Shown piece by piece: positions 8,113 through 41,346 of a stretch of 64,000 nucleotides of DNA; the first letter of the stretch is position 1, and each line of letters starts with the position of its first letter. The notes under the pieces were generated by a model. That model was not told where the DNA came from. It saw only the letters and a list, made by a program, of their open reading frames with translations, and made no database searches. Origin of the DNA: Acidimicrobiales bacterium. GTDB lineage: Bacteria; Actinomycetota; Acidimicrobiia; Acidimicrobiales; CADCSY01. The stretch is taken from NCBI GenBank assembly GCA_030446545.1, contig JAUJNB010000001.1, forward strand, positions 280,885-344,884, read 5' to 3'. A program made the position numbers and the translations under genes.

Positions 8113-8915
8113 GGCCGACCTCGGAGCAGGTGGGTCCGGCTCTCGGCGGCGGCCTGGGCACCGGTGGCCACGCCGGCGCACACCGCGCCGTAGAGGTCGA
8201 GGGTAGCCGCGCCGGCATAGCCGGCGGCGTCGAGGGCGGCGGCGAAGGGCCCGAAGTCGTGCAGGCGGCCGACCGGCAGGTCGTCGTCGGCGTTGCCCTC
8301 GGCCGCGTCGCCCAGGTGCACGTGCCACAGCCGCTCCCCCAAGCGGCCCACCACTTCGGCCGGGTCCTCCCCGGCGGCGTAGGCGTGGCCGGTGTCGAGG
8401 AGCACGCCCAGCCCGGGCACGGCGTCACAGAGCCCGACCGCGTCGGCCGCCGTCGCCACCGCGGTGCCCGGCTTGTACTCCAGCGCCACCCGCACCCCGG
8501 TGGGCGCCACCGCGTCGACCACGCGCCGGGCGCCGGCGGCCACCTCGGTGGGAGCGGTGTGGGGCTCGTCGGCGCCGGGCCAGACGCCGATCGTGTCCAG
8601 ACCGAGGTCGACCGCCACCTCGGCGGTGGCCCGGGCCTGGTCGACCACCAGCGCCGTGCTCGACCCGGCGAGGGCCCCATCGGGCCAGCGGTCGGGCGGG
8701 AGCGACAGCAGCAGCATGGCCACCGGCATCCCCGTCACCTGCGTCAGTTCCCTCACGTGGGCCAGGCGTTCGACGGCCAACTCGTCGGCCACCCGGTAGA
8801 CGCCCAGCTCCATCCCCTGGAACCCGGCGGCGGCCACCGCCGGCCACAGGGCGGCGTCGTCCAGCCCGTCGGGCCAATGGTTCCAGTCGGCGTCACACAG
8901 CTGCCAGGCGGTCAC
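8109..8915 (-). CDS. sugar phosphate isomerase/epimerase (xylose isomerase-like TIM barrel)
   Basis: 268-aa ORF. Pattern typical of AP endonuclease 2/xylose-isomerase-like barrels: GFQGMEL..VALEYKPG..LLDTGHAYAAGEDP..HVHLGD. Confidence 0.8.
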   Translation of the reverse strand: MTAWQLCDADWNHWPDGLDDAALWPAVAAAGFQGMELGVYRVADELAVERLAHVRELTQVTGMPVAMLLLSLPPDRWPDGALAGSSTALVVDQARATAEVAVDLGLDTIGVWPGADEPHTAPTEVAAGARRVVDAVAPTGVRVALEYKPGTAVATAADAVGLCDAVPGLGVLLDTGHAYAAGEDPAEVVGRLGERLWHVHLGDAAEGNADDDLPVGRLHDFGPFAAALDAAGYAGAATLDLYGAVCAGVATGAQAAAESRTHLLRGRP

Positions 8916-10027
8916 GACCGACCCCCGCCGGCCTGGCCCAGGCGGGTCAACGTGGCCCGGCGCACCGGCGGGGTCTGGGCCTGGACGAGGTGGAACAGCG
9001 CCTCGCGCACCAAGCGCTGAGCGGGTGACGTCCGCGACAGGCCTGCTCCCCCGCTGGCCACCACCAGGGCGGTGGCCGCCCGCACCCCCAGCTCCAGGGC
9101 ATGGGCCCGCAGGACCAACCGCTCGTCGAGGCCCTCAGCCGGCGGGACCTCGTCGAGGAGGCGGTAGGCGCGGGCCCGCACCCCGGAGGCCTCCGAGCGC
9201 AGTGCTCGGGCCAGGGCCAGGGCCACCGGCTCCTCCCGACGCCGGGCCGCCTCCTCCAGCCCGGTGACCACCCGGTCGATCAGGCCGAACACCGCCGGGG
9301 TGACGTTCGCCGTCTTGAGGGCGTCGGCCCGGCGCCACTGATCCAGCGCCACCAGGTCGACCACGTCGTCGGCAGGCACCGCCAGCCCGTCGAAGTCGAG
9401 GCGGACCGTGGCCGTGGCCTCCATGGCGGCCAGGGCGAGCGGCGCCGACGCCACCAGGCCGGGTCGGGGTCGGGCCGCCACCAGGGCTGACAGCGCCCGC
9501 CCGTCGTCGGTCTCGGCCCCCACCAGGAGCACCTCGGCCAGGCCCCAGCTCGTCACCCACGACGCCGTGCCCTCGAGGCGCCAGCCCCCGCCGGGCGCGG
9601 GACGGGCCCGCACGGTGGGCCCGCCGGAACGGCGCAGGTGGGCCACGGCGATCCCGCCGAGGGCATCCCGGCACAATCGGGGCAGCCAGCGCCGGCGGAG
9701 CTCGTCGTTGTCGGAGCGGGCCAGGGCCCGCACCGGCGTGGCGTGTTGGGTCCACACGAACCAGGTGGCCCCGTCGGCGCCCGACAGCACCTCGGTGACC
9801 CGGCGGGCCACCGGCGCAGGAACGTCGCTGCCGCCGGCCTCGCAGGGACCGTACAGGCCGAGGAGGCCGGCGCCGGCCAGGGCGGCGACGTGGCCGACCG
9901 GGACCCCCTCCACGTCGACCCGCTCGGCCTGAGGCGCCAGCAGCTCGGCCGCCAGGCGGACCGTGGCCCGCACGCACGGGTGCCGGTCGATCTCGGGTGC
10001 GGCGAGACAGGCGGTGGCGTCGGTCAC
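8912..10027 (-). CDS. acyl-CoA dehydrogenase-like flavoprotein
   Basis: 371-aa ORF with a 4-nt overlap onto the downstream gene. Overall ACAD-like layout (LLGLYGP..GIAVAHLRRSGGP..RLEGTASWVTSWGLAE) but with a divergent C-terminus. Confidence 0.65.
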   Translation of the reverse strand: MTDATACLAAPEIDRHPCVRATVRLAAELLAPQAERVDVEGVPVGHVAALAGAGLLGLYGPCEAGGSDVPAPVARRVTEVLSGADGATWFVWTQHATPVRALARSDNDELRRRWLPRLCRDALGGIAVAHLRRSGGPTVRARPAPGGGWRLEGTASWVTSWGLAEVLLVGAETDDGRALSALVAARPRPGLVASAPLALAAMEATATVRLDFDGLAVPADDVVDLVALDQWRRADALKTANVTPAVFGLIDRVVTGLEEAARRREEPVALALARALRSEASGVRARAYRLLDEVPPAEGLDERLVLRAHALELGVRAATALVVASGGAGLSRTSPAQRLVREALFHLVQAQTPPVRRATLTRLGQAGGGRS

Positions 10028-10172: not shown

Positions 10173-11183
10173 GTGCGACTGGCGGTCTGCGGCGGTGTCT
10201 ACTCCAACCCCTATGCCCTGCGCGCGTTCCTCGACGACGCCCGCCGCCGGGGCTGTGACCGGCTTTTCTGCCTGGGTGACCTGGGCGGGTTCGGCGCCGA
10301 GCCCGATGCGGTGTGGCCGCTCCTGGTCGACAACGGGGTTGAATGCATCGCCGGCAACTACGACGTGGCCATCGGCAGGGGCGACGACGACTGCGGCTGC
10401 GGTTACCGCGACCCTCGCGACAACGAGTTCGCCCAGCTCATCTACGACTTCACCAAAGCCCACACCAGCGCCGACTACGCCGCTTGGATGCGCACCCTCG
10501 ACATCGAGCACCGCGAGACGATGGCCGGGCTCGACGTGCACTTCGTCCACGGGTCCCCGCTGGTGCTCAACGACTTCTTCTGGGAATCGCTCGACGATGC
10601 CGAGGTCGAGCTGCGGGTCAAGGAGAGTGGGGCCGACGTGTTGTGTTGCACCCACACCGGGCTGCCCTGGATCAAGCGGGTGGGTGAGCGGCTGGTGGTC
10701 AACGTGGGGGCGCTGGGACGGCCCGCCAACGACGGCCGCCGGGAGGTCTGGTACGCGGTTCTCGACATCGACGACGGCCGGGCCGAGGCCGAGCTCGTGC
10801 CCCTCGCCTACGACTGGCAGGCCCATGCCGCCTCCATGCGGGCGGCCGGGCTGCCCGAGCCGTTCGTGGAGACGGTCGAGACCGGCTGGTGGACCACCTG
10901 CCTGGAGGTCGTCCCGCCCCGGGAGCGGTCACGGGGGCGCTACCAGCTCTACCGCAGTGCCGTGCCCAGCGGGTTCGCGGCCGACGGCGTGGGTTGGGCC
11001 GACGCCCCCGAGGTGGTCGACGACGGCCTGCCCGTGGTGCCGCTGTTCGGCTCCCCCTGTTCCCACCCCGGCTGTGGGTGTACACCAACTTCCACTGCAA
11101 CCTGCGCTGCGTCTACTGCTCGGTGGCGTCCTCGCCCACGGCCCGGCGCCGCTCGATGCCTCTCCCCCGCTTCCGGGACCTGA
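10173..11183 (+). CDS. metallophosphoesterase (YfcE/diadenosine-tetraphosphatase-like); true 3' end uncertain
   Basis: Shows MRLAVCGGVYSN..CLGDLGGFG..GNYD..FVHGSP..CCTHTG (phosphoesterase metal-ligand motifs). The recognisable domain ends near TGWWTTCLEVVPPRERSRGRY (about 10950). The ORF tail then runs into the radical SAM start region. Confidence 0.75.
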   Translation: MRLAVCGGVYSNPYALRAFLDDARRRGCDRLFCLGDLGGFGAEPDAVWPLLVDNGVECIAGNYDVAIGRGDDDCGCGYRDPRDNEFAQLIYDFTKAHTSADYAAWMRTLDIEHRETMAGLDVHFVHGSPLVLNDFFWESLDDAEVELRVKESGADVLCCTHTGLPWIKRVGERLVVNVGALGRPANDGRREVWYAVLDIDDGRAEAELVPLAYDWQAHAASMRAAGLPEPFVETVETGWWTTCLEVVPPRERSRGRYQLYRSAVPSGFAADGVGWADAPEVVDDGLPVVPLFGSPCSHPGCGCTPTSTATCAASTARWRPRPRPGAARCLSPASGT

Positions 11184-11848
11184 TCGACGAGGCGGTGGTG
11201 GAGGGCTTCACCGAGGTGTACATGACCGGCGGCGAGCCCTTCCTCGAGCCCGACATCGTCGAGATGATCCTCTACGCCAGCGACCGCCTCGACACCGTGG
11301 TGCTCACCAACGCCATGTTGTTCAAGGGTCGCCAGCTCACCGAGCTGCGCCGCCTGGCCGGGCGCGCACCGCCTCGTGCTGCAGACCTCGATCGACGGCG
11401 CCCGGGCCGAGACCCACGACCGCAACCGGGGCCCGGGCTCGTGGGCCAAGGCCATGGAGGGCCTGGCTGTCGGTTGTGAGCTGGGCCTGCCCATGCGGGT
11501 GGGCCTGACCGAGACACCCGAGAACACCCACGAGGTGCCCGAGCTGGGCGCCCTGCTGGCCACCATGGGCATCGTCGGCCGGGATTTCGCCGTGCGCCCC
11601 TGATCAAGCGGGGCTTCTCCGAGACCGGCATGGACGTCGACGAGACCAACACCGTGCCTGAGCTCTCGGTAAGCGTCGACGGTGTGCACTGGCACCCGGC
11701 CGGCGCCGACATCGAGACCAGCCCCGACATGTTGCTGGCCGCCGGCGAGGTTCCCCTGGCCGAGGCCAAGCGCCTGGCCGTGGAGCGCTTCCTCACCCTG
11801 CGCCAGGGCGACGGCACCCTGCCCCACATCTACAACTGCGCGGTCTGA
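11078..11848 (+). pseudogene. radical SAM protein, reading frame broken twice (compensating +1/-1)
   Basis: The CxxxCxxC cluster YTNFHCNLRCVYC and GGEPFLEPD lie in the frame of ORF 10889..11479. The expected continuation LQTSIDGARAETHDRNRGPGSW is in the frame of ORF 11376..11603. The C-terminus (RPLIKRGFSETG)MDVDET..LPHIYNCAV is back in the first frame (ORF 11630..11848). The start is uncertain: GTG 11078 or an upstream fusion. Confidence 0.65.
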
Positions 11849-11927
11849 CCGGCCGGGGAAAAGTGCCTTCCCGGGGGTAGTACCGTCTCGAGACGAACCC
11901 GCGGATCGCAACACAGAGGTGCAGCTG

Positions 11928-12539
11928 ATGTCGCTCTCGCAGAACCGCTGGCTCACGCTGGGGACGTCCCTGGTCGTCGTCGCCCTCCTGGGTGTCGCCT
12001 GCGACAACGGTGAGGACGGTGAGGCGTTAGGAGCGGGTTCCGACGCCGATGGAACCACCACCACGGTTCCAGAGACCGCCACGACACTTCCGGTGACGAC
12101 CACCACGGCTGCGCCGACCCCGGAGGAGGAGGTGCTCGCCGCCTACCAGGGCTATTGGGATGCCGTCGACGACGCGTTCGGGCCTCCGGAGGTGGATCCC
12201 GAGTCACCCGGGCTTCGCCGGTTCGCTACGGGAGAGGTCCTGCCGGGCATCATCGACAGTGCCGAGGAGGTCAAGGCCGAGAACGCCTACGTCCGGACGC
12301 CCGAGGACAGTACGCATGAGTCGGAGGTCGTATCCCTCGAGGAGTCCACCGCCACCGTTCGGGACTGCACCGTCGACGACGCCGTACTCGAGCGGGTGGG
12401 TACCGGGGAGATCCTCGACGACGCCGTGAGCACCCGCGAGTACATTGCCATGCTGGTCCTGGAAGACGGCCAGTGGAAGGTTGCGGTCCTCACCGAGGCC
12501 AACACCTGGGAGGGCGTGGCCGGATGCGCCATCGAATAG
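11928..12539 (+). CDS. putative lipoprotein, unknown function (paralog A1)
   Basis: Internal ATG of ORF 11682..12539. Reads MSLSQNRWLTLGTSLVVVALLGVAC (lipobox-like), then a T-rich linker TTTVPETATTLPVTTTTAAPTPEEEVLAAY. Paralog at 21608..22231. Confidence 0.7.
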   Translation: MSLSQNRWLTLGTSLVVVALLGVACDNGEDGEALGAGSDADGTTTTVPETATTLPVTTTTAAPTPEEEVLAAYQGYWDAVDDAFGPPEVDPESPGLRRFATGEVLPGIIDSAEEVKAENAYVRTPEDSTHESEVVSLEESTATVRDCTVDDAVLERVGTGEILDDAVSTREYIAMLVLEDGQWKVAVLTEANTWEGVAGCAIE

Positions 12540-13417
12540 GCGTGGTGGCCTTCGCCGTCGCCATGGCGGGTACCTTCATCGCCGTCACCCCCTCGGCAAC
12601 GGCCCTCGGTAGGGACAACAAGAAGGCGCCGGACGTCGACGCCGGCGTCGACGGTTCAGCCCCGTCCGGGACGCCGGTGATCAGAGTCAGGGATCCCGGA
12701 GGTCCCGGCCGCCCGGGCAACTCCGGCGGCTCCGGGAGCTCCGGCGGCCCGGGCATCGACAGCGGGTCGGGCTACGACTGCACCTGGTACCGCCTGGACG
12801 GGGCCGACCAGCCCGACTTCGCCCAGCCCTACGACCCCCCGCCGCCCGACGGCACCCGAGCCTGGCTGCGCTGTTCGGGGCCCGAGAGCATCGACGGGAT
12901 CCGCACCCGCCAGAGCGGAGGGACGGTGGCGGCCATCGCCGTCGAGCGCCTGCCCCTCCCCGGACCCGAGGTAGGAGCCAACCCGAGGGTCGACGCCGAC
13001 CAGTTGGTGGGCGTGCCCACCTGGTTGTGGGTCACCAACTTCGAGGCGTTGTCGGTCACCGCCGCGGTGCCGGGCACCACCGCCGACCTGGTGGCCACCC
13101 CGGTGTCGGTGAGCTTCGACATGGGCGACGGCCGGTCGCCCCTGGTGATGGGGGTGGGGCCCCAGTTTGCCTGCCAGGCGCCCGGCACCCCCTACGACGT
13201 CTCCCTGCCCTCGGCTGCCCAGCGCAGCGCCTGCACCTACACCTACGAACGCTCCTCGGCCGGTCGCCCCTCCCAGGAGTTCACGGTCACCGCCACCATG
13301 TCCTACGACCTGGACTGGGCGGCCGACACGGGCCAGTTCGGGAGGCTGCCCACCCTCACCCGCACGTCCACCTTCCCCCTCCGGGTGGCCGAGGCCCAGG
13401 CCCTGGTGACGGGCTGA
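12524..13417 (+). CDS. secreted protein, unknown function (paralog B1)
   Basis: Internal ATG of ORF 12473..13417. Signal-like MRHRIGVVAFAVAMAGTFIAVTPSATA and a Gly/Ser-rich linker precede a conserved domain DCTWYRLDG..VGVPTWLWV..RVAEAQALVTG. Paralog at 22210..23082. Confidence 0.65.
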   Translation: MRHRIGVVAFAVAMAGTFIAVTPSATALGRDNKKAPDVDAGVDGSAPSGTPVIRVRDPGGPGRPGNSGGSGSSGGPGIDSGSGYDCTWYRLDGADQPDFAQPYDPPPPDGTRAWLRCSGPESIDGIRTRQSGGTVAAIAVERLPLPGPEVGANPRVDADQLVGVPTWLWVTNFEALSVTAAVPGTTADLVATPVSVSFDMGDGRSPLVMGVGPQFACQAPGTPYDVSLPSAAQRSACTYTYERSSAGRPSQEFTVTATMSYDLDWAADTGQFGRLPTLTRTSTFPLRVAEAQALVTG

Positions 13418-13469
13418 GCACCGACGCTTCTCCGTCGGGCCGAGTTGGACGACGGAGGACACCAGGGTC

Positions 13470-13565
13470 TCAGCCGAACGTTGGCGGCCGGGGTTCCAGG
13501 CGACGCTTGACGGTGAGGTAGGCGCTGCCGCCGCTCATGCCCAAGCCTGCCTCGAGGGCCGCCCG
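13470..13565 (-). pseudogene. decayed 3' fragment of a lipoprotein paralog
   Basis: Minus-strand reading ..ALEAGLGMSGGSAYLTVKRRLEPRPPTFG* parallels the C-terminus of the adjacent lipoprotein (..ARALTDGRAYLSVNVFWDLDRPRVG*). No start codon and no upstream body. Confidence 0.4.
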
Positions 13566-13620
13566 GCTTGGACATGCCAAGGGCTGGTCCCCGAAGATGG
13601 CGAAGTGGCTCGCGGAGGAC

Positions 13621-14187
13621 TCAGCCGACCCTGGGCCGGTCGAGATCCCAGAAGACGTTGACGCTGAGGTAGGCGCGACCGTCCGTCAGTGCCCTCGCCT
13701 GGATGGCGATGTTCGGCCCGTCGGTCCCGAGGCGCTGGGATGGGGTGTGCTCGAGGGACCCGGTGTTGTCTCTCCGGACGGCGTTGCGAGCGGCCCACTC
13801 CTCCAGTCGGGTGCCGTCGAGGCCCCAGCGCTTCACTAGGTCGGCGGCCCGCTGGGCGGCCTGGGCTACCGGCTCCCGGTCGAAGTTGACCACGATCGTT
13901 TGGAGTACCTGGCCGGAGGTATCCCCTGGCGGTCGGCCGGCGACGGCATCGAAGGGGCCTTCGATGGTCACACCCTCGGGGAGCAGGATGGTGAGCTCTC
14001 CCGGTTCGGGATCAACGAAGTAGCTGTCGCTGTCGATGTCCTCGGGCCAGTCCACGTCCTCGATGCGATGGCTGGTGCGTAGGTCCCACACTGCGGGCAC
14101 GGCGTTCTCCCCGTCTCCGAAGCCGATCTGACAGCCGGCCAGCAAGGTGCCGGCGGCCAGGGCGAGTGATGCCAGTCGATGTCTCAT
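13621..14187 (-). CDS. lipoprotein, candidate immunity protein for the upstream toxin
   Basis: 188-aa ORF. MRHRLASLALAAGTLLAGC is a canonical lipobox (LAGC). Its ATG overlaps the reconstructed toxin stop (ATGA). Confidence 0.7.
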   Translation of the reverse strand: MRHRLASLALAAGTLLAGCQIGFGDGENAVPAVWDLRTSHRIEDVDWPEDIDSDSYFVDPEPGELTILLPEGVTIEGPFDAVAGRPPGDTSGQVLQTIVVNFDREPVAQAAQRAADLVKRWGLDGTRLEEWAARNAVRRDNTGSLEHTPSQRLGTDGPNIAIQARALTDGRAYLSVNVFWDLDRPRVG

Positions 14188-15915
14188 CCACCCGGCTCGT
14201 ACTGGAGGAGCCAGTTCGGAATGTTGCGGCGCTCGGCGGCCAGGTCCTCGAGGGGGTGGCGATGTAGCCGCCGGCCTGTCCGGCGTTCACCAGGCACATG
14301 TAGCGGGGGAACATGTCCCCGATGATCCACTGCCAGCGGTGGTCGCGCATCGTCACGTTGTTGATGGGCAGTTCGGCCACGGTGCCCCCGATGCGGTCGG
14401 GAGTGTCGAGATAGACCGGGTCCCCGGGCATCCAGCCGGGCAGAAGGGGCATCCGGTCGGGGGTGTCCAGCACCGGCGTACGCACCTCGTAGGGCACCTC
14501 TTCGCGGAACGAGTCACCATTGGGGATGGGGCTGTCGGCCACGAAGGACATGCCCATGGTGAGGGCCCACGCCAGCGGGCTGTGGTTGCGGATCTCGTCG
14601 TAGTCGTCGCCGATGATCGTGTACTGCTCGTGGCGCACGATGCCCAGAGTGCCCCGCCGAATGAGGGCCGGATCTCCCGAGTCGATGTCGCGCCAGGCCG
14701 AGATGTGGGCGTCCAATATCTCCCCCGCCGGTACAGCCCCTCCATGGCGGCCAGGCCGCCCTGTCGGTAGGCCACGTGCTGCCAGGCCAGGTCGTCGAAG
14801 ATGTTCTGTTGCATCTCCAAGAGCCGGGTCTCGACGAACCGCAGCTCCTCGGCCACCGTGGTGAGGTCCTGGCTCGTCAGCTCGCCGATGTCGTCGAAGG
14901 GCAGGCCCAGGCGACGAAGCGCCTCGGTCACCTCCTCGGCGTTGAGCGCGCCCGCTTGGATGGCCCGGCGCAACACGTGGAGGTCCTGGAGGCCGGCGTA
15001 GACGCTGGCCCCGGCCAGCTTGGCCATGCCCGCCCACAAGAAGCGCTCGGGGTCACTGGCGTAGAGCCGGGCGTAGTACTCCCAGCCCGCTCGGACCTGG
15101 GCATCGATGGCGGCCAGGCCGAGGGCGGGGTCCCAGGCCTCGGCGTGGATGCCGGCCTGGTGCAGGGCCTCGAACTGCCACGACTCCTTGGAGTCGAGGA
15201 TGAGGCCGGCGTCGGTGACCAGGAAGCTGAGCTCCTGGCCGCCGGGGGCCCACAGGCCTTCGACCATCCCTCCGGCGATGCGGCCCAGCCAGGCCCCGAT
15301 GCCCGAGATCCACGGGTCGGCCAGGTCGTCGCTGCGGGCCACAGCCAGATCGCCGGCGGCGGCGCGGCCGGCCCGGTCGCGCCGGTCCACGGCATCCTCC
15401 AGCAGGCGCCGGGCCTCCTCGGCCTCGGCCTCGGCGTCGGCCAGGGCCGAGGCCCAGTCGGGTCCCGACCACGGTGCCGGCTCCCGGGGGGCCCGGTCGG
15501 GGTTGGCCTCGTTCCAGCGGGTGGCGTCCTCGGCCTCGTCGCGGTCGTGGCGGGCCCGAGCGGCCAGGCCCTGGTTGGCGTCGTCGATGTGGCCGCTGGC
15601 GTGTCGGGCTCGGCGCAGGGCCGCGGCGGCATCGTCCTGGGCGTGGTCCAGCTCGCCGGCGTAGGCCACCAGCGCCGAGGCGCTGCGGTAGCAGCGGGCG
15701 GCGGCCGACTCCAGCGCCGGGGGGACCTGGTCGCGGTGCTCGGCGAAGCGCTCGGCGGCCAGGCCCAGCCACAGGGGGCCGGGGTCGATGCGCTTGACCA
15801 CTCCGGCCTGGTCACCGAGTTCGTCGCCGAGACGCTCCAGGCGCCGGGCCGAGGCCCGCACGGCATCGGGGTCGCCCGGCACCGGGTCCGATTCGGCCAG
15901 CGGCTCCCAGCCCAT
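14184..15915 (-). CDS. putative T7SS-secreted polymorphic toxin (T7SS-signal-type N-terminal domain), two apparent 1-nt frameshifts
   Basis: The N-terminus matches the pattern of the actinobacterial 'putative T7SS secretion signal' domain: MGWEPLAESDPVPGDPDAVRASARRLERLGDEL..PLWLGLAAERF. The body is in ORF 14353..15915 and continues in ORF 14012..15037 after the C-run at 14722-14726 (..GLYRRG / EILDAHISAWRD..). A second shift at the G-run 14252-14256 gives ..YIATPLEDLAAERRNIPNWLLQYEPGG* ending at 14184. The C-terminal domain of about 330 aa was not recognised. Confidence 0.65.
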
Positions 15916-15921
15916 GGGGCG

Positions 15922-16206
15922 TCAGTACCCCACGGCCACGGTCACGATGGTGGCGTCGGCGTCGGTGAAGGCCCGGGTGGCGGCCTCGGTGTAGGCGGCC
16001 AGGGTGGCCAGAGCCGACGACAGGCGCTGGCGCCGTTGGTCCCAGTCACCGGCCACGTCGGCCAGCGCGTCGGTGACCTCGGGCGAGCCGGAGACGTCGA
16101 TGGCCAGCCCGGTCACCTCCTCGAGGTCGGCGACCGCCGTGCGGGCGTGGGAGAGGGCGTGGGCCAGGTCCTCCAGCTCCTCCAGGTCGGCCAGGATGCG
16201 CGTCAC
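15922..16206 (-). CDS. small helical protein, probable secretion partner of the downstream toxin
   Basis: 94-aa ORF that is acidic and helical (MTRILADLEELEDLAHALSHARTAVADLEE..). Its stop lies 6 nt before the toxin ATG. About 180 nt of non-coding sequence lies upstream. Confidence 0.55.
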   Translation of the reverse strand: MTRILADLEELEDLAHALSHARTAVADLEEVTGLAIDVSGSPEVTDALADVAGDWDQRRQRLSSALATLAAYTEAATRAFTDADATIVTVAVGY

Positions 16207-16384
16207 GGGGGGCCGGACCGGTCGGACACGATCGGTGGCCGGCTCCTCGGGGTCATGCGGTTCCCCTTGCGTCGATGCGTGGCGTCAGTTGGCTGCGGTG
16301 GAGTGCCGGGCTCACGTTAGGACTCCTCACGAGGAGCGTCCAGGGCTCGGTGCTCGGGGTGGTCCACCCCGGGATGGTCCCACC

Positions 16385-16816
16385 TCACGTCTCACCCTGG
16401 TCCACGCCCCGCACGCTGCGGGCCGAGCCCTGGCCCGTGACCGTGACCTGGGCCAACCCCCCGATGCCGAGGATCTGGAGGGGCTGTTCGACGGTGACGG
16501 TGACGGTGACGGCGTCACCGGTGACGACCACCGTTCCGGGCCGGCCCAGCAGGGCCAGGTGGGCAGTGGCCGCAGCTTGCGCCTGGGCCGCATCGAGCTC
16601 CTGGTCACCCGAAGACCGGAGACGGTCGATGGACACGGCCTGGGCGCCGGCTCGGGCCGCCGACTCGGCTTCGTTGTCGGCCTGGCGCTTGGCCGCCAGC
16701 AGGGTGCCCCCGTCGAGGACGAGGCCCACGACGAAGATGAGGGCGACGGTGAAGATGGTGACGAAGGCCGTCACCTGCCCAGCTTCGCCACGACGCCCGG
16801 TCCAGGGGCCCCTCAC
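16385..16816 (-). CDS. TadE/TadG-like pilus assembly (pseudopilin-like) protein
   Basis: GTG at 16816 overlaps the upstream stop (GTGA). Reads VRGPWTGRRGEAGQVTAFVTIFTVALIFVVGLVLDGG, a TadE/G N-terminal hydrophobic segment. Confidence 0.7.
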   Translation of the reverse strand: MRGPWTGRRGEAGQVTAFVTIFTVALIFVVGLVLDGGTLLAAKRQADNEAESAARAGAQAVSIDRLRSSGDQELDAAQAQAAATAHLALLGRPGTVVVTGDAVTVTVTVEQPLQILGIGGLAQVTVTGQGSARSVRGVDQGET

Positions 16817-17241
16817 GAGTCGAGCCCCCGGAACTGGTCCACCACTTCCACCGCTCCGGCGGAGAGGGTCTGGCTGCCCGGAAGCGGGAGGGGGGACAGG
16901 TCGCTCAGGTCGACGTCGCAGCTGACCTCCACCGACACGGTCCCGCCCCGTCGGAAGGCGTCGATGTCGGTGGTGACGATCACCGAGGCGCAACTGAACC
17001 CCTGGTCGGCCAACGTCGCCTGGGCCGCCGCCTGGGCCGCCGGGCCGGCGGCCACGGCGCTGCGTTGGATGGAGGCGGCCCGAGCGGCGTCACGGGCGGC
17101 CCCGACCAGGTCCCCCCGGGCCCCGGCCAGGCGACCGGCCAGGGTGGCGAAGACCAGCAACAGCAACAGCAACGGGGTCACCAGCACCAGCTCGGTGGCT
17201 GCGGCCCCCCGCTCAGCGCGCACCCGGGAGATGGGGGTCAC
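16813..17241 (-). CDS. TadE-like protein
   Basis: GTG at 17241 overlaps the upstream stop (GTGA). Reads VTPISRVRAERGAAATELVLVTPLLLLLLVFATLAG, the TadE motif (ERG..xxE + hydrophobic helix). Confidence 0.75.
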   Translation of the reverse strand: MTPISRVRAERGAAATELVLVTPLLLLLLVFATLAGRLAGARGDLVGAARDAARAASIQRSAVAAGPAAQAAAQATLADQGFSCASVIVTTDIDAFRRGGTVSVEVSCDVDLSDLSPLPLPGSQTLSAGAVEVVDQFRGLDS

Positions 17242-17636
17242 GGCGCCCGGAACTCCTCCACCGGGCCCTCGGACTCGGCCGAGATCGGCAGCCGGATGCC
17301 CGGGACGACCTGGATGGCCCGGCCATTGACCTCCACCCGGGCCACCCCAGCCGGGTCGCGGGTGGCCGTGACCGTGCGCTCGAGCACCAGGGCCTGGCCC
17401 ACGGCGTCGAGGAACGCCTCGGCCCGGGCCTTTCCCGCAGGGGCGCTCGACCCCTCGACCCGTGCCGCCCGAGCCCCTTCCTGGGCGGCCGCCGACGCCA
17501 CGTGCGAGGCGTGGAACCACAGGCCGAACTGCACCACCAGGAGCACCATGAACAGCATGACCGGCGTGACCAACACCAGCTCCGCCGTGGCCGCGCCCCG
17601 CTCGCCCTTGCCCCGTCCTCCGGTCACCCTCGGCAC
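17238..17636 (-). CDS. TadE-like protein
   Basis: 132-aa ORF reading GERGAATAELVLVTPVMLFMVLLVVQFGLWFHA. Confidence 0.8.
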   Translation of the reverse strand: MPRVTGGRGKGERGAATAELVLVTPVMLFMVLLVVQFGLWFHASHVASAAAQEGARAARVEGSSAPAGKARAEAFLDAVGQALVLERTVTATRDPAGVARVEVNGRAIQVVPGIRLPISAESEGPVEEFRAP

Positions 17637-25730: not shown

Positions 25731-26237
25731 TCAGCTCATGACGGTGACCGGCACGGCGTAGAACATCACCAGGGCGAGAGCCACGTCGACGGCGTCGACC
25801 GTCTCGGCCATCTTGTTCGACCCCAAAACCCCCCCGAGGCTGGCTACCGGCGTGCGGTCCTCCCTTTCCAGCATCTCACGAGCGAAGCCGATCCTTCGAT
25901 AGAGGTAAGAACGGGGCCCAAGTCGGATCACGATCCCCCGGCGACGACGGCTGAGAAGGGCCGAGTCCGGTTGTACCGCCTCACCGCCGAGCGTTGCCAC
26001 CGACAACGCCACCGGGTCGACAAAGGACGTGTGTCGCCTGCCGTCGAGCCTTCCGAAGGGACCGAACTCGATGCTGGCGTCGGGCAGGTGGGGACCCCAA
26101 GCCCGGGTCCCCAGCCGGTGATCGGTGAAGCCCACCCAGGCTGGCCCGTACGGCCCCTCCTATCGAGTACGCACCTCCACACCCTCCGGGGAAGCCGGGC
26201 CATGCCCCGAGGGGTCACTGACGGTGAAGGTGGTCAA
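25731..26237 (-). pseudogene. multicopy ~170-aa family, copy with in-frame TAG
   Basis: TTG at 26237 gives LTTFTVSDPSGHGPASPEGVEVRTR, then TAG at 26160-26162 exactly where paralogs have the Tyr of Y-E-G-P-H/Y-G-P. It continues EGPYGPAWVGFTD..RAWGPHLP..GRLDGRRHTSFVD..LSRRRRGIVI..RSYLYR..VALALVMFYAVPV. Confidence 0.6.
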
Positions 26238-26246
26238 AGGCCGCCT

Positions 26247-26780
26247 CTACGCCTGTGCCCTGATGGCGCTGTCGGGTACGCCATAGAACATCACCAGGGC
26301 GAGGGCCACGTCGACGTCATCTGCCTCCTCAGCCACCTGATGGGGCGCTCTCACGCCTCCGAAACTGACCACCGGAGTGCGGTCGTCGCGCTCCAGCAGA
26401 GGGCTGGAGATGCCGGCGATGCGGTAGAGGTATAACCGGGGCCCAAGATCGATCTTGATACCCCGACGGCGGCGATTGAACAGGGCCCAGTTCGGTTGCA
26501 CGGCATTCCCCGACAGCTCTCCCACGCCGAGGGCTACTGGATCCACGAACGACGTATGTCGCTGGCCGTCCAGTCGCCCCGAAGGGCCGAAGTCGAAGCG
26601 GGCGTCCGGAACAAGGGGACCCCACGCCTGAGTGACCTGGTCATTGTTCGTGTAGGCCGCGAAGACGGGTCCGTGGGGCCCGTCGTAGTAGCTGTGGGCG
26701 ACGGCACCCGGTGGAGCACCAGGTGCGTCGCCGGAGGCGTCTCCGAGCCTGAAGGTGATCATGGGCGGCTTCGCTCTCAC
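26247..26780 (-). CDS. multicopy ~170-aa family protein, copy 4
   Basis: GTG at 26780 overlaps the upstream stop (GTGA). VRAKPPMITFRL..YYDGPHGPVFAA..QAWGPLVP..GRLDGQRHTSFVD..FNRRRRGIKI..RLYLYR..VDVALALVMFYGVPDSAIRAQA. Confidence 0.7.
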   Translation of the reverse strand: MRAKPPMITFRLGDASGDAPGAPPGAVAHSYYDGPHGPVFAAYTNNDQVTQAWGPLVPDARFDFGPSGRLDGQRHTSFVDPVALGVGELSGNAVQPNWALFNRRRRGIKIDLGPRLYLYRIAGISSPLLERDDRTPVVSFGGVRAPHQVAEEADDVDVALALVMFYGVPDSAIRAQA

Positions 26781-27217
26781 GTCGGCTTCGCCGCCGACGT
26801 CTCGGGAGGGAGGGCGATCTGGACCAGGTACGCGTCCCCCCCGGTGACCACGAAGCCCCCGGGCCCGAGACTGATTCTGATGCCCCGACGGCAGCAGTTG
26901 AACAGTGCCCAGCTCGGTTGCACCGCGTTCCCCGAGAGCTCTCCCACGCTGACGGCCACCGGATCCAGGAACGACGTATGTCGCCGCCCGTCCAGTCGCC
27001 CGGAAGGGCCGAAGTCGAGGCGGGCATCGGAGACATGGGGACCCCAGGCCCGAGTGACCTGGTCACCGTCGGTGTAGGCCGCGAGGACGGGCCCGTGCGG
27101 CCCTTCGTAGTGGCCACGGGTCACTACCCCCTGCGGCGAGGGAGGTGCGTCATCGGCCGCATCTCGGAGGGTGGCGGTCTTTGTCAGCACTTCGGCGTCA
27201 CGTCGGCTCACCGCCAA
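26777..27217 (-). CDS. chimeric ORF: N-terminal ~105 aa of the ~170-aa family fused to an essC-like 3' tail
   Basis: HYEGPHGPVLAA..RAWGPHVS..GRLDGRRHTSFLD..FNCCRRGIRI is followed by SLGPGGFVVTGGDAYLVQIALPPETSAAKPT*. That tail parallels the frame-corrected end of the 33846..38090 gene (PGRGFLVAG..EAALVQVALPPEVPGPPAV*). The DNA shares CTGGTCCAG(A/G)TCGCCCT..CCCGAG. Confidence 0.55.
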   Translation of the reverse strand: MAVSRRDAEVLTKTATLRDAADDAPPSPQGVVTRGHYEGPHGPVLAAYTDGDQVTRAWGPHVSDARLDFGPSGRLDGRRHTSFLDPVAVSVGELSGNAVQPSWALFNCCRRGIRISLGPGGFVVTGGDAYLVQIALPPETSAAKPT

Positions 27218-27312
27218 TGTCCTGGGAGCTCGACGGCTACCTCCAAGTGCCCGGCAGAGATCAGCTCGACGGCGTCAGGATCCATGGACACCGACGTCAT
27301 GGCCACCAGTAT
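27208..27312 (-). pseudogene. orphan 5' fragment of the effector family (start codon mutated ATG to ATA)
   Basis: The minus strand reads I-LVAMTSVSMDPDAVELISAGHLEVAVELPGHWR*, compared with MLVAMTSVFMDPDAVELLSARLSDIAVDLG in 24731..25684. Confidence 0.55.
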
Positions 27313-27483
27313 GGCGCCGCTGCACGTTTCCATACGCCTGCGCCTTGATGGCGCTGATCGGCCCCGTAGGGCTCGGCTGACCGTGACAGCGGTCCCTACC
27401 TGTATCGGTACCGATCCGCTCTTTTGTGGTGCTACGTTTCGCGTGTGCCGTCGCCGGGTGAGCTACGGGAAGAAGCCGCCGGC

Positions 27484-27804
27484 ATGGAGGGAGCGGCATC
27501 CCACAAGGAGGAGGTGGCCTACGAGCTGCGTCGCCAGGCCGCCCTGCTCCCCGAGGGCACGGATCGGGTGGACGGGACGATCACGCCCGCACTGTGGGAG
27601 GGCCGGGCGGCAGAGGCCGCCGACGATGCGCTGGCGAGCAGCGTCCGGTGGATTCGTCAGGCCGCCGAGGATCTGGAGGAGATCGCCGCCGAGCTCGAGG
27701 ACGAGGCCCACGGTCTTCGTCAGGACGCGGCCGACGCCGGCCGACAGGCCGACGACCTTCAAGCCGAGCTGGACGCCGAGGCCGACGCCGGTGCCGTCGC
27801 CTGA
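27484..27804 (+). CDS. small WXG-type / T7SS-signal-like helical protein (orphan, opposite strand)
   Basis: ATG at 27484 inside ORF 27424..27804, preceded by GGGAAGAAG. Reads MEGAASHKEEVAYELRRQAALLPEG..ITPALWEGRAAEAADDAL..EDLEEIAAELEDEA, with an acidic Ala/Asp tail. The W-x-G + AA pattern resembles the N-domain of the 14184..15915 toxin. Confidence 0.5.
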   Translation: MEGAASHKEEVAYELRRQAALLPEGTDRVDGTITPALWEGRAAEAADDALASSVRWIRQAAEDLEEIAAELEDEAHGLRQDAADAGRQADDLQAELDAEADAGAVA

Positions 27805-27899
27805 ACCCTCGGCCCGCCCCGGCCTTTCGCCAAGGGGTCCCTCCCCATGGGCACATGCCTGCGACTCCAGGGCCGACCGGTCGTCAGGGTTGCCCAGCG

Positions 27900-28406
27900 C
27901 TACCCCTCTCGAGCCTCAGGTGCCCGGCGCACCAGGTCGTGCAGGAGCCGGGCCAGCTGCGGCGGATCCTGGGTGGCCACGGCGACGTAGCCGGGCTGAC
28001 CGCGCTCCTTCACGATGACGTAGCGGTCACCCACGGCCGCTCCCCACTGACCCCCCGCCACCCGCACGTCGCTGGCGCGGTCACCGAACCAGCCGCCGAC
28101 GGTACCGGTGAAGCGCTGGCCGGCCGCCTGCTCCTCGAGCGGGGCGGGATCGAGATCGGCCAGGGCGAAGCGCTCCTTGCCGATCCGCAGGGTTTCTTCG
28201 GTGACCTCCAGCTTCCCGTAGCGCCGCTTGCTGTAGACGTAGGGACCGATCCCACCCAAGCCCACGACGGCACCGCCGAGCACGATGCTCAAGGCGTCGC
28301 CGGGGGTCCGGAGCACCGAGTCGATTGCCGTGCCGAGGGCGGTGACGGCAAGCAGGACCCACAGCGGAGTGAGAGACCCGCCCGGCTCAGTGTGCAGAAC
28401 ATTCAC
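27900..28406 (-). CDS. two-TM membrane protein with DUF3093/bacterial-PH-like soluble domain (candidate immunity)
   Basis: GTG start overlaps the upstream stop (GTGA). TM segments are LTPLWVLLAVTALGTAIDSVL and ALSIVLGGAVVGLGGIGPYVY. The soluble part reads KLEVTEETLRIGKERFALADL..YVIVKERGQPGYVAVATQDPPQLARLL. Confidence 0.6.
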   Translation of the reverse strand: MNVLHTEPGGSLTPLWVLLAVTALGTAIDSVLRTPGDALSIVLGGAVVGLGGIGPYVYSKRRYGKLEVTEETLRIGKERFALADLDPAPLEEQAAGQRFTGTVGGWFGDRASDVRVAGGQWGAAVGDRYVIVKERGQPGYVAVATQDPPQLARLLHDLVRRAPEAREG

Positions 28407-28936
28407 GCCTGTGCCGTGATGGCGCTTACCGGCACGCCTGCGAACAGCACCAGGGCGACGACCACATCCACCGGATCGGCTGACTCGGAGATCGCGTGGT
28501 CTCCGGTCACACCTCCGAGCGCGGCCACCGTCGATCGATCACCCCGCTCCAATGACGGCCGGGAGAAGCCAGTCACACGATAGAGGTAGGACCGGGCCTC
28601 CAGAGTCACCGCGATCCCCCGCCCGCGGCGGCTGAACAAGGTCCAATTCGGTCTGACCATCGCCCCGGAAGCTCCACCCACGGTGAGCGGTACCGGGTCC
28701 AGGTAGAAGGCGAGCGGCTGACCATCCGACCGACCGAAGGGGCCGGCCTCCAGCTGAGCACTCGGTACATGAGGTCCCCACGCGAACGTCGCTTCTTGGC
28801 TCTCGTTGTGACCGACGTACACCGGGCCGTGAGGGCCTTCGTAGCGACTACGAGCTGCCGTGCCCTCGGGCGAGCGGGGGGCGTCGCGGGGAGCCTCGTG
28901 CAGGCGGAAGCTGGTCATGGACGTCCGCGAGCTCAT
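28403..28936 (-). CDS. multicopy ~170-aa family protein, copy 6
   Basis: ATG at 28936 overlaps the stop of the upstream remnant (ATGA). MSSRTSMTSFRL..RYEGPHGPVYVG..FAWGPHVP..GRSDGQPLAFYLD..FSRRGRGIAV..RSYLYR..VDVVVALVLFAGVPVSAITAQA. Confidence 0.7.
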   Translation of the reverse strand: MSSRTSMTSFRLHEAPRDAPRSPEGTAARSRYEGPHGPVYVGHNESQEATFAWGPHVPSAQLEAGPFGRSDGQPLAFYLDPVPLTVGGASGAMVRPNWTLFSRRGRGIAVTLEARSYLYRVTGFSRPSLERGDRSTVAALGGVTGDHAISESADPVDVVVALVLFAGVPVSAITAQA

Positions 28937-29174
28937 CCGGGTGCCTCCACGCCGGGCAACAGGGCGCTCAGGCGTCGCCACACCTCTCCTGAGGACACCG
29001 GCTCGAGGGTCACTCCCAGGGCAGGGTCGTCGTAGGCGGCGGCGGCGAGCACGATGCTCAAGGCGTCCCCGGGCCCTGGAGCACCGAGTCGACCACCGTG
29101 CCGAGGGCGGTGACGGCAAGCAGGACCCACACCGGCGTGAGACGCGCGCCCAGCTCAGCGTGCAGAACGCTCAC
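28933..29174 (-). pseudogene. deletion chimera: 5' end of a DUF3093-like gene joined to 3' end of an EspG-like gene
   Basis: VSVLHAELGARLTPVWVLLAVTALGTVVDSVLQGPG.. is near-identical at the DNA level to the start of 27900..28406. After a 1-nt loss it runs into ..DALSIVL|AAAAYDDPALGVTLEPVSSGEVWRRLSALLPGVEAPG*. Confidence 0.6.
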
Positions 29175-29707
29175 GCCTGTGCCTTGATCGCGCTGGGAGG
29201 TACGCCGTAAAACATCACGAGGGCGACGGCCACGTCGACGGCATCCGCCGTCTCGGTGATCAGATGGCTCCCGAGGACGCCCTTGAGACTCGCCACCGGC
29301 GTGCCGTTCTGCCACTCCAACAGCTCACGTGGAGCGATCCCCGTGATCCGGTAGAGGTACGACCGGTTCTCCAAGGTGACCACAACCCCTCGGTGGCGGC
29401 GGCTGAACAGTGCCCATTCGGGCCGCACCACTTCTCCGGAGAGAGATCCCACGTGCAGCGGCACCGGTTTCATGTAGGCCGCGACCGGCTGGCCGTCCAG
29501 CCGTCCCCAATGGCCGACGTCGAGCTGGGTAGAGGGCACGTTGGGCCCCCATACCCGGGTGGCGGTCTGGTCGTCGCTGTACCCGACGTAGGCCGGCCCG
29601 TACGGCCCTTGGTACCCAGCGCGCACCTCCACGCCGTCGGGCGAGCGGGGGGTGTCGTCGGAAACACTTCCCAGGCTGAAGGCCACCATGGGTGCCTTGG
29701 GGGTCAC
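29171..29707 (-). CDS. multicopy ~170-aa family protein, copy 7
   Basis: GTG at 29707 overlaps the upstream stop (GTGA). VTPKAPMVAFSL..GYQGPYGPAYVG..RVWGPNVP..GRLDGQPVAAYMK..FSRRHRGVVV..RSYLYR..VDVAVALVMFYGVPPSAIKAQA. Confidence 0.7.
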   Translation of the reverse strand: MTPKAPMVAFSLGSVSDDTPRSPDGVEVRAGYQGPYGPAYVGYSDDQTATRVWGPNVPSTQLDVGHWGRLDGQPVAAYMKPVPLHVGSLSGEVVRPEWALFSRRHRGVVVTLENRSYLYRITGIAPRELLEWQNGTPVASLKGVLGSHLITETADAVDVAVALVMFYGVPPSAIKAQA

Positions 29708-33782: not shown

Positions 33783-33845
33783 GCCGGCCAACCAGGGTCT
33801 TGCCCGCACCAGAGAGTCCACCGGCTCGGCGTGGAGAACGGCCGC

Positions 33846-38090: not shown

Positions 38091-38102
38091 CAGGAGCGGG
38101 GG

Positions 38103-41339: not shown

Positions 41340-41346
41340 GTCGCTC

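Follow-up and report, generated by a model that had tools for sequence, protein, structure and literature searches.

Why does a 2.6-kb segment occur twice within one stretch of an Acidimicrobiales genome, and why do the two copies resemble each other so unevenly? The stretch analysed here (64,000 nt of contig JAUJNB010000001.1; hereinafter "the window") had been described by a sequence-only reading as carrying a segmental duplication with mosaic divergence and an internal deletion. In a self-BLAST of the window, 11791–13418 matches 21465–23083 at 78.9% identity (1662 columns, 26 gap openings), and 14171–14378 matches 23130–23326 at 85.6%. Against chance, the E values are 0 for the large block and 3e-58 for the small one, and the edges fall 4–7 nt from those proposed. 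A genuine segmental duplication is present: its two copies, 2588 nt (copy 1) and 1862 nt (copy 2) long, do not overlap and are separated by 9.7 kb. Alignment of the copies bears out the gene order and orientation reported before, namely the 3′ end of a radical-SAM gene, gene A, gene B and, on the opposite strand, the 3′ end of a toxin gene. The two copies and their surroundings contain the following elements.

10173–11848, plus strand: metallophosphoesterase and radical-SAM fusion gene (Pfam Metallophos_2 and Radical_SAM matches)
11791–11848, plus strand: left end of copy 1, 58 nt, last 19 codons and stop of the radical-SAM gene (93% identical to 21465–21522)
11928–12539, plus strand: A1, 203 aa (translation)
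12524–13417, plus strand: B1, 297 aa (translation)
13419–13620, no strand: copy-1-specific spacer after B1, absent from copy 2
13621–14187, minus strand: 188-aa lipoprotein, immunity candidate (translation)
14171–14378, minus strand: right homology block of copy 1, lipoprotein start and last 60–65 toxin codons (the small self-BLAST block)
14196–15915, minus strand: T7SS_signal toxin (Pfam PF21725, E = 2e-13) with a weak DUF2515 match
20427–21222, minus strand: left arm of a roughly 800-nt direct repeat around copy 2 (77.8% to 23362–24155, self-BLAST)
21465–21522, plus strand: left end of copy 2, orphan radical-SAM 3′ fragment (alignment to copy 1)
21608–22231, plus strand: A2, intact paralogue, 207 aa (translation, block comparison)
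22210–23082, plus strand: B2, intact paralogue, 290 aa from GTG (translation)
23084–23129, no strand: copy-2 spacer (alignment with relatives)
23126–23326, minus strand: debris, first 6 lipoprotein codons (23126–23146) and last 60–65 toxin codons (three-frame translation, alignment)
23362–24155, minus strand: right arm of the direct repeat (self-BLAST, Pfam)

Homology to copy 2 begins abruptly at 11791, inside the fusion gene. Compared with its intact 565-aa homologue P0197, this gene has three frameshifts, located at C/G runs, and is readable only in four frame segments. An alignment places its C-terminal 72 aa at the very C-terminus of P0197 (Metallophos_2 + Radical_SAM); accordingly, the 58-nt left end encodes the native C-terminus of that 565-aa protein family. 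Downstream of B1, the spacer contains a remnant of a lipoprotein 3′ end (13466–13549 resembles 13617–13701, 75.6% over 86 nt in self-BLAST). It is followed by the lipoprotein and toxin genes, with predicted immunity and toxin roles, which are coupled by an ATGA overlap of lipoprotein start and toxin stop. The 188-aa lipoprotein is 55% identical to a 193-aa lipoprotein downstream of the intact toxin of contig L007, and no Pfam or NCBIfam family was found for it. The toxin of the window has two frameshifts, at about 14713–14725 and 14252–14267, and the intact 590-aa L007 toxin matches it in three frames (tblastn).

The corresponding ends of copy 2 are remnants. Its left junction has just 2–3 nt of microhomology with the island sequence, and both outer junctions have at most 3 nt in common with it. 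At the right end, the toxin codons, earlier estimated at about 60 and counted here as about 60–65, need three frame changes for reading, and the lipoprotein, an immunity candidate already reported as lost, is reduced to ATG plus five codons (MSHRLA* on the minus strand). The ATGA overlap is retained. Copy 2 has this toxin C-terminal fragment and no intact cognate immunity gene. The proposed internal deletion stands in part: 752 nt of copy 1 (13419–14170, including the lipoprotein gene) are absent, but they are replaced by 46 unrelated nt that also occur in relatives. Specifically, the first ~30 nt of this spacer (stem-loop GGCCCTCTTCGG.TGGGCC) are common to L001, L007 and L009 and missing from copy 1. 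Since the genes represented only by fragments at the ends of copy 2 are full length next to copy 1, copy 2 is the derived or decayed copy.

As placed before, copy 2 lies in the island between tadB (19546–20388) and tadA (38103–40193). The tadA–tadB interval also includes genes for an FHA-EssC/EccC-type T7SS ATPase and EspG-like genes. The left arm of the repeat around copy 2 holds a 172-aa gene and the C-terminal part of an EspG-like gene, and the right arm holds a 188-aa gene and the 3′ part of the full EspG-like gene at 23926–24879, whose EspG match is weak (26.1 bits, below the Pfam gathering cut-off of 27).

A1 contains a lipoprotein signal, a Thr/Pro linker and an NTF2-like domain. The best Foldseek matches of the predicted structure of A (AlphaFold2, mean pLDDT 82) are the ARC6/PARC6 intermembrane-space NTF2-like domains (E = 2e-5). 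B1 overlaps the A1 stop by 16 nt and contains a signal peptide, a disordered linker and an all-beta domain of about 215 aa (pLDDT >90 for residues 80–297); a search with the AlphaFold2 model of B found no PDB fold match at E ≤ 0.001. Pfam, NCBIfam and PDB yielded the NTF2-like fold for A and no relative giving B a function. The B mature domain is strongly conserved family-wide, with invariant Trp, Cys and Gly columns. It is 92–93% identical between B1 and B2, while their signal peptides and linkers cannot be aligned. A1 and A2 equal P0121 and P0128, B1 is exactly P0189 in the NCBI-derived collection, and P0001 is B2 from a later start codon. All four genes lie on one 369,411-bp NCBI contig.

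Elsewhere the pair has a regular address. In a survey of 80 representative genomes, A–B stands at the Tad operon head, with B followed by CpaB, TadA, TadB and TadC in 62–67 of 80 loci, and an A-profile ORF lies upstream of B in 74 of 82. Within 10 kb of the surveyed A–B loci there was no match to the N-terminal region of the window toxin (ToxN), the EspG-like proteins or the EssC-type ATPase. The survey indicates that A–B is a conserved pair normally heading Tad operons across Actinomycetota, and is not island cargo by origin. In the window, both A–B pairs are on the strand opposite the Tad genes, and no A or B was found upstream of cpaB.

Conservation between the copies is patchy, as the sequence-only reading had observed: identity is 86% in the A 5′ block, 62% in the A core, 46% in the B 5′ region and 91–93% in the B core. 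The earlier count of about 16 differences between B1 and B2 over the last ~210 residues is exact over the last 205–215 residues. The corresponding dS values between the copies are 0.32, 1.07, 1.18 and 0.16 (chi-square for heterogeneity 71, P = 2.5e-15), a difference of about 7-fold, which contradicts uniform divergence along the repeat, the counter-case named at the outset.

Comparison with relatives gives a different nearest neighbour for different blocks. In the A core, A1 is 86% identical to its L007 counterpart (dS 0.64) and A2 is 93% identical at the nucleotide level to that of L008 (dS 0.17), while A1 and A2 share only 62%. In the A 5′ block, A1–A2 identity (86%) exceeds that of A1–L007 (80%) and A2–L008 (76%), and in the B core the dS of B1–B2 (0.16) is lower than that of B1–L007 (0.26). 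Thus, the paralogues are closest within the genome in some blocks and closest to the counterparts in other assemblies in others. Likewise, at the protein level the N-terminal block of A2 groups with A1 and P0122 (81–82%), and the relatives of its core, P0136 and P0141, have only 60–62% identity with A2 in that block. By block comparison, A2 is a chimera, with its 5′ block A1-like and its NTF2 core A2-type. Because dS differs so strongly between blocks and the block phylogenies conflict, recombination or gene conversion is needed. Two sites of exchange can be placed in copy 1.

12131–12134, plus strand: recombination breakpoint in gene A at the boundary of linker and NTF2 domain, about codon 68 (triplet test)
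12969–13129, plus strand: candidate recent gene-conversion tract in the B core (matches 22634–22794)

In the triplet test, A2 was set against A1 and the A2-type gene of L008; the ratio of informative sites changes from 34:12 on the left of the breakpoint to 10:126 on the right (Fisher P = 5e-18), and the equivalent position in copy 2 is about 21811–21814. Over about 160 nt, the copies differ in the candidate tract at 2 positions against about 12 expected (permutation P = 0.004); its longest identical run is 90 nt (P = 0.03), its local dS is about 0, and L007 differs from it at 7 sites. All close relatives share about 90% identity in the B core, with nearly star-like four-taxon site patterns (10:6:2); the modest dS gap to L007 and this one short tract suggest homogenisation of the B core. 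Taken together, the block comparisons indicate concerted evolution of the A 5′ block and the B mature-domain block, in which the copies are more alike than their counterparts elsewhere. Exchange of these conserved flanking blocks probably took place inside the genome, through homologous recombination or gene conversion. The middle part of about 590 nt (A NTF2 domain plus B signal peptide and linker) is of A1-type or A2-type, each nearly unchanged in other assemblies. Since both core types occur in other contigs and the 5′ block of A2 is nearest to that of A1, the core types are old lineages.

The comparison contigs are short metagenome assemblies and may themselves be chimeric; six of them (L001, L004, L007, L008, L009 and L011) carry the same fragments in other combinations, and A genes occur in tandem in L008 and L009. 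Because the same fragments are found recombined in related assemblies, the locus family recombines repeatedly. Contig L006 has a single A–B pair directly adjoining the 5′ end of tadB, in the orientation of copy 2, and no sign of the radical-SAM fragment was seen at that pair.

The history that we consider likely is a fairly old duplication of the two-gene operon (A, B), made mosaic by non-allelic homologous recombination at two conserved blocks. The order of events, which we infer from one genome and short metagenomic contigs, would start with an A2-type pair resident beside tadB, as in L006. A copy-1-like segment would then have been copied beside or over this pair; the dead gene ends and the abrupt, microhomology-only junctions show that the flanks of copy 2 derive, through illegitimate recombination, from a locus resembling copy 1. 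The two would have merged when crossing-over or gene conversion took place in the B core and in the A 5′ block, there with a breakpoint near 12131. Short conversion tracts such as 12969–13129 may still be exchanged between the copies. The lipoprotein gene of copy 2, useless without its toxin, would have been deleted.

In an alternative history, copy 2 is a full duplicate whose core was later swapped for foreign A2-type DNA, and there was no resident A2-type pair. The closest match to the A2 core, in L008, comes from an unrelated sample with a dS similar to that of B1–B2, the conserved flanking blocks would serve as homology arms, and in the actinobacterium Micrococcus luteus natural transformation has reportedly been connected with Tad pili, which would also speak for such xenologous replacement. 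However, the L006 pair beside tadB, with its lack of a radical-SAM fragment, suggests a resident pair, and we regard replacement as unlikely; it differs from the preferred account only in the source of the A2 core.

It is very improbable that the copies come from different strains or loci and were stitched or partly mixed by the metagenome assembler. Contig L010 is B2-type (bar a 1-nt gap) over 13281–13366 and identical to copy 1 over 13367–14308, with the switch in a 44-nt stretch identical in both copies; therefore, assemblers or real strains mix the two copies. In addition, several genes around copy 1 are frameshifted at homopolymer runs. Thus, an artefact of this kind could underlie part of the fine-scale mosaicism in the window; it could account for short patches but not for the large blocks. 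Specifically, the A core is 38% different and the B 5′ region unalignable, with each core type found independently in other samples; the short sequence shared at the outer copy 2 junctions offers no repeat for a graph-based mis-join; A1, A2, B1 and B2 come from a single 369-kb contig; and the 1-nt toxin deletion at about 14265 recurs in L010, an independent Logan contig.

The sequence-only reading had offered gene conversion or diversifying selection; the dS heterogeneity and the block conflict argue for conversion or recombination, and diversifying selection is unsupported because dN/dS is below 1. The ratio is 0.36 in the A core (at most 0.65 in every window, with dS saturated there) and about 0.3 in the B core, and ranges from 0.05 to 0.5 over A and B. 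In other assemblies, the A1-type and A2-type core lineages have dN/dS of 0.08 and 0.29, respectively. These values indicate that both A–B pairs, which are intact, are under purifying selection. Because both core types have close counterparts elsewhere, the divergence of the A core is old and does not reflect rapid change after duplication. A recent duplication followed by positive selection on the A NTF2 domain and the B N-terminus in an arms race would explain a variable block between conserved blocks, as in polymorphic immunity genes, and would fit the T7SS toxins encoded in the island and, over codons 1–30 of B, an apparent dN/dS of about 1. We give such a history scant credence, since the B comparison is one of unalignable signal peptides and linkers and the A cores belong to separate conserved lineages with the low ratios given above. 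A simple old duplication whose patchiness reflects varying functional constraint, for which one might cite the conserved B mature domain and the fast drift expected for signal peptides and linkers, is barely credible, because constraint affects amino-acid changes, yet dS runs from about 0.16 to >1, the block trees are in conflict, and the neutral debris at the copy 2 ends is 7–14% diverged versus 38% for the A core.

From the duplicated and recombined pairs, the cell most likely produces two variants of an extracytoplasmic lipoprotein/secreted-protein pair associated with Tad, the main difference between them being in the A NTF2 domain. The mechanism is ordinary, being the usual plasticity of a toxin island; the pair itself is uncharacterised and widely conserved alongside Tad pilus operons.

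Among duplicated bacterial genes, the esx and PE/PPE paralogues of mycobacteria and tufA/tufB in Salmonella are known cases of gene conversion and concerted evolution. As in those systems, segments are closer within the genome than to orthologues, and short near-identical tracts lie in diverged sequence. Unlike in those systems, homogenisation is seen in only two blocks, alongside an ancient unconverted core.

Polymorphic toxin loci, such as CDI, Rhs and T6SS arrays, contain orphan toxin-C-terminus/immunity modules as displaced cassettes. Similarly, truncated toxin 3′ ends and immunity fragments lie here downstream of a full-length, frameshifted candidate toxin with its putative immunity gene, and are rearranged in relatives. 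However, copy 2 has neither an immunity gene nor the upstream conserved toxin segment for restoration. The copy 2 remnant was considered as such a module and rejected; it is debris carried with A–B and not a stored alternative cassette.

The T7SS immunity paralogues esaG (Staphylococcus aureus) and tipC (Streptococcus) recombine through conserved sequence blocks (Garrett et al. 2022, PMC9484751). The resemblance lies in several features: the paralogues belong to a T7SS toxin island; a variable centre is bordered by conserved 5′ and 3′ blocks, with homologous recombination giving chimeras, losses and expansions; TipC, like A, has a lipoprotein signal and faces outward (PMC9484751); and the relatives L008 and L009 have A genes in tandem. 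In contrast to esaG and tipC, the exchanged unit here extends over two genes (the domain of A, and the signal peptide and linker of B), the copies lie at a distance of 9.7 kb and not in tandem, and A and B are normally in Tad operons with no toxin nearby, their immunity role being only putative. Assignment of A–B to an immunity family of the esaG/tipC type was rejected, the pair not being consistently beside a T7SS toxin. By analogy, the NTF2 domain of A might serve a combined Tad pilus/T7SS apparatus for contact-dependent antagonism as its polymorphic specificity module, with a TipC-like outward-facing role in immunity or recognition, a proposal that we consider quite doubtful. If it is true, balancing selection would keep old A types, the conserved blocks would shuffle them between paralogues, and the duplication would give the cell two specificities.

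Concerning the setting and not the duplication itself, a system described in 2024 (PMC11217815) likewise has genes for an EssC/EccC-type ATPase, WXG100-like proteins and an EspG-like chaperone together with a full Tad set. In contrast to that system, the host here is a high-GC actinobacterium whose nearest named hits are Acidimicrobiales MAGs, the ATPase has an FHA domain, and the Tad operon itself contains the T7SS genes and effector island, in the tadA–tadB interval, instead of having them beside it.

The window contains two copies of a segment that carries, in the same gene order and orientation, the 3' end of a metallophosphoesterase and radical-SAM gene (rSAM), a gene for a lipoprotein with an NTF2-like domain (A), a gene for a secreted all-beta protein (B) and, on the opposite strand, the end of a toxin gene. 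Self-comparison of the window resolves the duplication into two matching blocks, 11791-13418 against 21465-23083 (78.9% identity over 1662 columns) and 14171-14378 against 23130-23326 (85.6% identity). Copy 1 is 2588 nt long, against 1862 nt for copy 2.

Features of the two copies and of the copy-2 surroundings (window positions)
58 nt in both copies: rSAM 3' end, last 19 codons and stop
11928-12539: A1, the copy-1 A gene
12524-13417: B1, the copy-1 B gene, overlapping the A stop
21608-22231: A2, the copy-2 A gene
22210-23082: B2, the copy-2 B gene, overlapping the A stop
both copies, strand opposite to A and B: toxin gene end
20427-21222 and 23362-24155: arms of a direct repeat around copy 2, ~800 nt, 78% identity

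The sequence-only reading, which had claimed a segmental duplication on these grounds, is borne out in most particulars. Of the lipoprotein gene (minus strand, 188 aa, the immunity candidate beside the toxin), said to be lost from copy 2, six codons are left (MSHRLA*), with the ATGA stop/start overlap intact. About 60 toxin codons had been reported for copy 2, and ~60-65 are found, readable only with three frame changes. Over their last 205-215 residues the B proteins show exactly 16 differences, as counted before. The claim of an internal deletion holds in part: 752 nt (13419-14170) are absent from copy 2, but 46 unrelated nt stand in their place, and the start of this spacer is common to relatives. 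Specifically, its first ~30 nt after the B stop, a stem-loop, are absent from copy 1 and common to the related contigs L001, L007 and L009, where the stem-loop spacer is joined to a lipoprotein fragment starting near 14020. The copy-2-like arrangement therefore predates this strain, and the copy-2 'deletion' is one among several independent truncations. The spacer between B1 and the lipoprotein gene also holds an 84-nt remnant of a lipoprotein 3' end (13466-13549, 76% identical to 13617-13701), probably from an earlier immunity gene displaced there.

The outer junctions of copy 2 are abrupt, with microhomology of at most 2-3 nt, and the direct repeat around it is part of an array of ~170-aa repeated genes and EspG-like genes. 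The gene to the left of copy 1 encodes a metallophosphoesterase and radical-SAM fusion. Its final 72 codons match the very C-terminal end of other members of the family, among them an intact 565-aa two-domain protein, which identifies the 58-nt piece at the left edge of copy 2 as a genuine gene fragment. Scans of both copies for promoter and terminator consensus sequences gave nothing beyond shuffled expectation.

The toxin has a T7SS_signal domain (PF21725) and a weak match to DUF2515; a phmmer search of PDB sequences with the C-terminal region of its homologue on L007 returned no match. Because the toxin gene (14196-15915) reads in three frames relative to this intact 590-aa homologue, it contains two frameshifts, at ~14265 and ~14715. 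Three occur in the rSAM gene (10173-11848). All five lie at C or G runs of 4-5 nt; neighbouring genes of 4.2 kb and 2.1 kb read through without interruption. L010, an independent contig, has the toxin frameshift at ~14265 too, which makes at least this one probably genuine. A GC3-based heuristic for frameshifted genes elsewhere in the window could not tell frameshifts from adjacent genes and was dropped.

Divergence between the copies is strongly mosaic.

Nucleotide identity between copy 1 and copy 2
rSAM fragment: 93%
A 5' block (signal peptide and linker): 86%
A core (NTF2 domain): 62%
B 5' region: 46%
B mature domain: 91-93%
toxin remnant: 86-92%

Nei-Gojobori dS is 0.32 in the A 5' block, 1.07 in the A core, 1.18 in the B 5' region and 0.16 in the B core, and the heterogeneity among these four blocks is highly significant (chi-square 71, P = 2.5e-15). 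Uniform divergence along the repeat would have pointed to a simple duplication; silent divergence is instead seven-fold uneven, a range for which unequal constraint cannot account. A stretch of ~160 nt in the B core (12969-13129) shows two differences against ~12 expected (permutation P = 0.004), and L007 differs there at seven sites, which fits a recent short conversion tract. Of the two causes proposed from sequence inspection, gene conversion is supported by the dS heterogeneity, by conflicting relationships among blocks and by a breakpoint test, while diversifying selection is not: dN/dS comes to 0.36 for the A core and ~0.3 for the B core and stays at or below 0.65 in every A window, with no sign of positive selection in the A and B blocks.

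The conflicting relationships emerge from comparison with other assemblies. L007, from ENA, carries a gene of the A1 lineage (core 86% identical at the nucleotide level, dS 0.64), a B of the B1 type, and an intact toxin accompanied by its lipoprotein. L008, from Logan, carries an A2-type gene whose core is 93% identical to that of A2 (dS 0.17), but whose 5' block is only 76% identical. In the A 5' block, the nearest relative of each copy is thus the other copy (A1-A2 86%, against 80% for A1-L007). Similarly, the A2 N-terminal protein block groups with A1 and the homologue P0122 (81-82%), and the relatives of the A2 core, P0136 and P0141, are just 60-62% identical to A2 in that block. With A2 tested as a recombinant of A1 and the L008 gene, a breakpoint falls at 12131-12134, at about codon 68 on the linker/domain boundary, with informative sites split 34:12 to its left and 10:126 to its right (Fisher P = 5e-18). 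In B, the block boundary falls at about codon 72. In the B core, dS is lower for B1-B2 (0.16) than for B1-L007 (0.26); four-taxon site patterns of 10:6:2 are too star-like to place B1 and B2 firmly.

Searching metagenome contigs with A2 gave only relatives of 54-56% identity on contigs of ~2 kb, and no orthologous long contig. On L004, L009 and L011 the same pieces are rearranged otherwise, in one case beside a DDE transposase. In L004 (ENA ERZ27247912), a truncated A, B, the lipoprotein gene and the toxin 3' end lie between an acyl-CoA dehydrogenase-like gene (window 8912-10027) and the metallophosphoesterase gene start, upstream of the rSAM gene and not downstream as in the window; either the same module has inserted at a further site here, or the contig is chimeric.

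All four genes, A1, A2, B1 and B2, lie on one NCBI contig of 369,411 bp. The independent L010 (Logan, SRR24860172) is identical to copy 1 over 13367-14308 (942 nt) and, save for a 1-nt gap, of B2 type over 13281-13366 (86 nt), switching inside a 44-nt stretch common to both copies. Either gene conversion produced this form in the population, or L010 is a chimera made during assembly at the k-mer level. It does not call into question that there are two copies, because their cores are 38% different and no repeat through which a mis-join could arise is present at the outer junctions. The fine-scale patches require read-level confirmation. Identical stretches between the copies exceed a typical assembly k-mer and an independent assembly mixes the copies, so gene-level conclusions from this MAG need long-read support; the practical value of the duplication is as a warning on the assembly of such paralogues.

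A consists of a lipoprotein signal, a Thr/Pro-rich linker and an NTF2-like domain modelled confidently (mean pLDDT 82), with the ARC6/PARC6 intermembrane-space domains as best PDB matches (E = 2e-5). In B, a signal peptide and a disordered linker precede an all-beta domain of ~215 residues (pLDDT > 90) with no solved relative at E <= 0.001. Neither protein matches a Pfam or NCBIfam family, and NCBIfam likewise holds none for the lipoprotein, the toxin, the EspG-like genes or the ~170-aa repeated genes.

The B1 domain alone found no relative in genome contigs, and a family profile was needed. A profile of B homologues detected 311 relatives among species-representative genomes, and 80 of the loci were retrieved. 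The genes cpaB, tadA, tadB and tadC come after B, on its strand, in 62-67 of these 80, and an A-family gene lies directly upstream of B at 74 of 82 loci. A-B is therefore a conserved, unnamed pair heading actinobacterial Tad operons, found there in most actinomycete genera sampled, e.g. Streptomyces, Pseudonocardia, Lentzea and Amycolatopsis, and in Acidimicrobiales. Given this position, A and B are candidates for envelope components not yet accounted for in Gram-positive Tad pili. In the window, neither gene lies upstream of cpaB (40620-41519), and both A-B pairs are on the strand opposite to the Tad genes.

The Tad operon of the window (15922-41519) is itself unusual in being interrupted between tadA and tadB, and copy 2 sits in the intervening island, as had been noted from the sequence.

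Features of the Tad operon and island (window positions)
38103-40193: tadA
33846-38102: FHA-EssC/EccC-type T7SS ATPase (TIGR03928, E = 1e-144, under the curated cut-off)
33123-33821, 29704-30909 and 23926-24879: EspG-like paralogues
20479-20997, 23411-23977, 25731-26135, 26247-26780, 26777-27217, 28403-29119 and 29171-29920, minus strand: array paralogues
19546-20388: tadB
17964-18467 and 15922-16206: WXG-like genes, interleaved with tadC, flp, tadE and tadG

Effector-like repeated units occupy ~13 kb between tadA and tadB, and WXG-like genes and the T7SS_signal toxin come after the pilin genes. The array at 20479-29920 is made up of seven or more divergent paralogues of one gene (~135-250 aa), without a family match, along with pieces of EspG-like genes and of a protein of 317 aa (24731-25684) with a glycine-rich C-terminus; it looks like a decaying effector/immunity array. 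In L007 (6361-6551, against window 16206-18112), the WXG100-toxin module comes right after the 167-aa WXG-like gene that is tadC-adjacent in the window, and the flp, tadE, tadE and tadG found in the window at 16385-17884 are missing from this junction. Presence or location of the pilin gene block thus varies within the clade.

In our conclusion, the segmental duplication is real and not very recent. The copy-2 flanks derive from a copy-1-like locus via illegitimate recombination, homologous exchange through two conserved blocks, that of the A 5' end and that of the B mature domain, has remodelled the copy-2 interior, and the central ~590-nt block (A NTF2 domain and B signal peptide/linker) represents two old lineages that persist in several populations. 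In the most likely order of events, an A2-type pair would have been resident beside tadB, as in the relative L006; a copy-1-like segment would have been copied beside or over it; the two would have merged by crossing-over or conversion through the conserved blocks; and the orphaned lipoprotein gene would have been lost later. In a variant of this account the A2 core was acquired by uptake of foreign DNA, and the present data do not tell it from the account with a resident pair. A mobile-element origin was considered and rejected, with no transposase or integrase between positions 9 and 33 kb of the window, although L009 does have a DDE transposase beside a B fragment. A recent foreign origin is unsupported, the GC of the island and around copy 1 being merely ~2-4% below the nearby flanks. 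The window has a G+C content of 72%, and its closest named homologues are in MAGs of Acidimicrobiales and other Actinomycetota.

The mechanism is of a known kind, and the main interest lies in the identity of the duplicated pair and its setting: A-B in two old allelic types, and a Tad operon with an inserted T7SS ATPase and effector island. Tad-adjacent T7SS variants are described in the literature consulted for Bacillota only (PMC11217815). The duplication itself is textbook evolution of a secretion-system island: a segment is copied, its passenger fragments decay, and the paralogues recombine block by block. Its closest described parallel is provided by the T7SS immunity genes esaG and tipC, whose paralogues recombine through conserved 5' and 3' blocks (PMC9484751); to these firmicute cases it adds a two-gene actinobacterial example.
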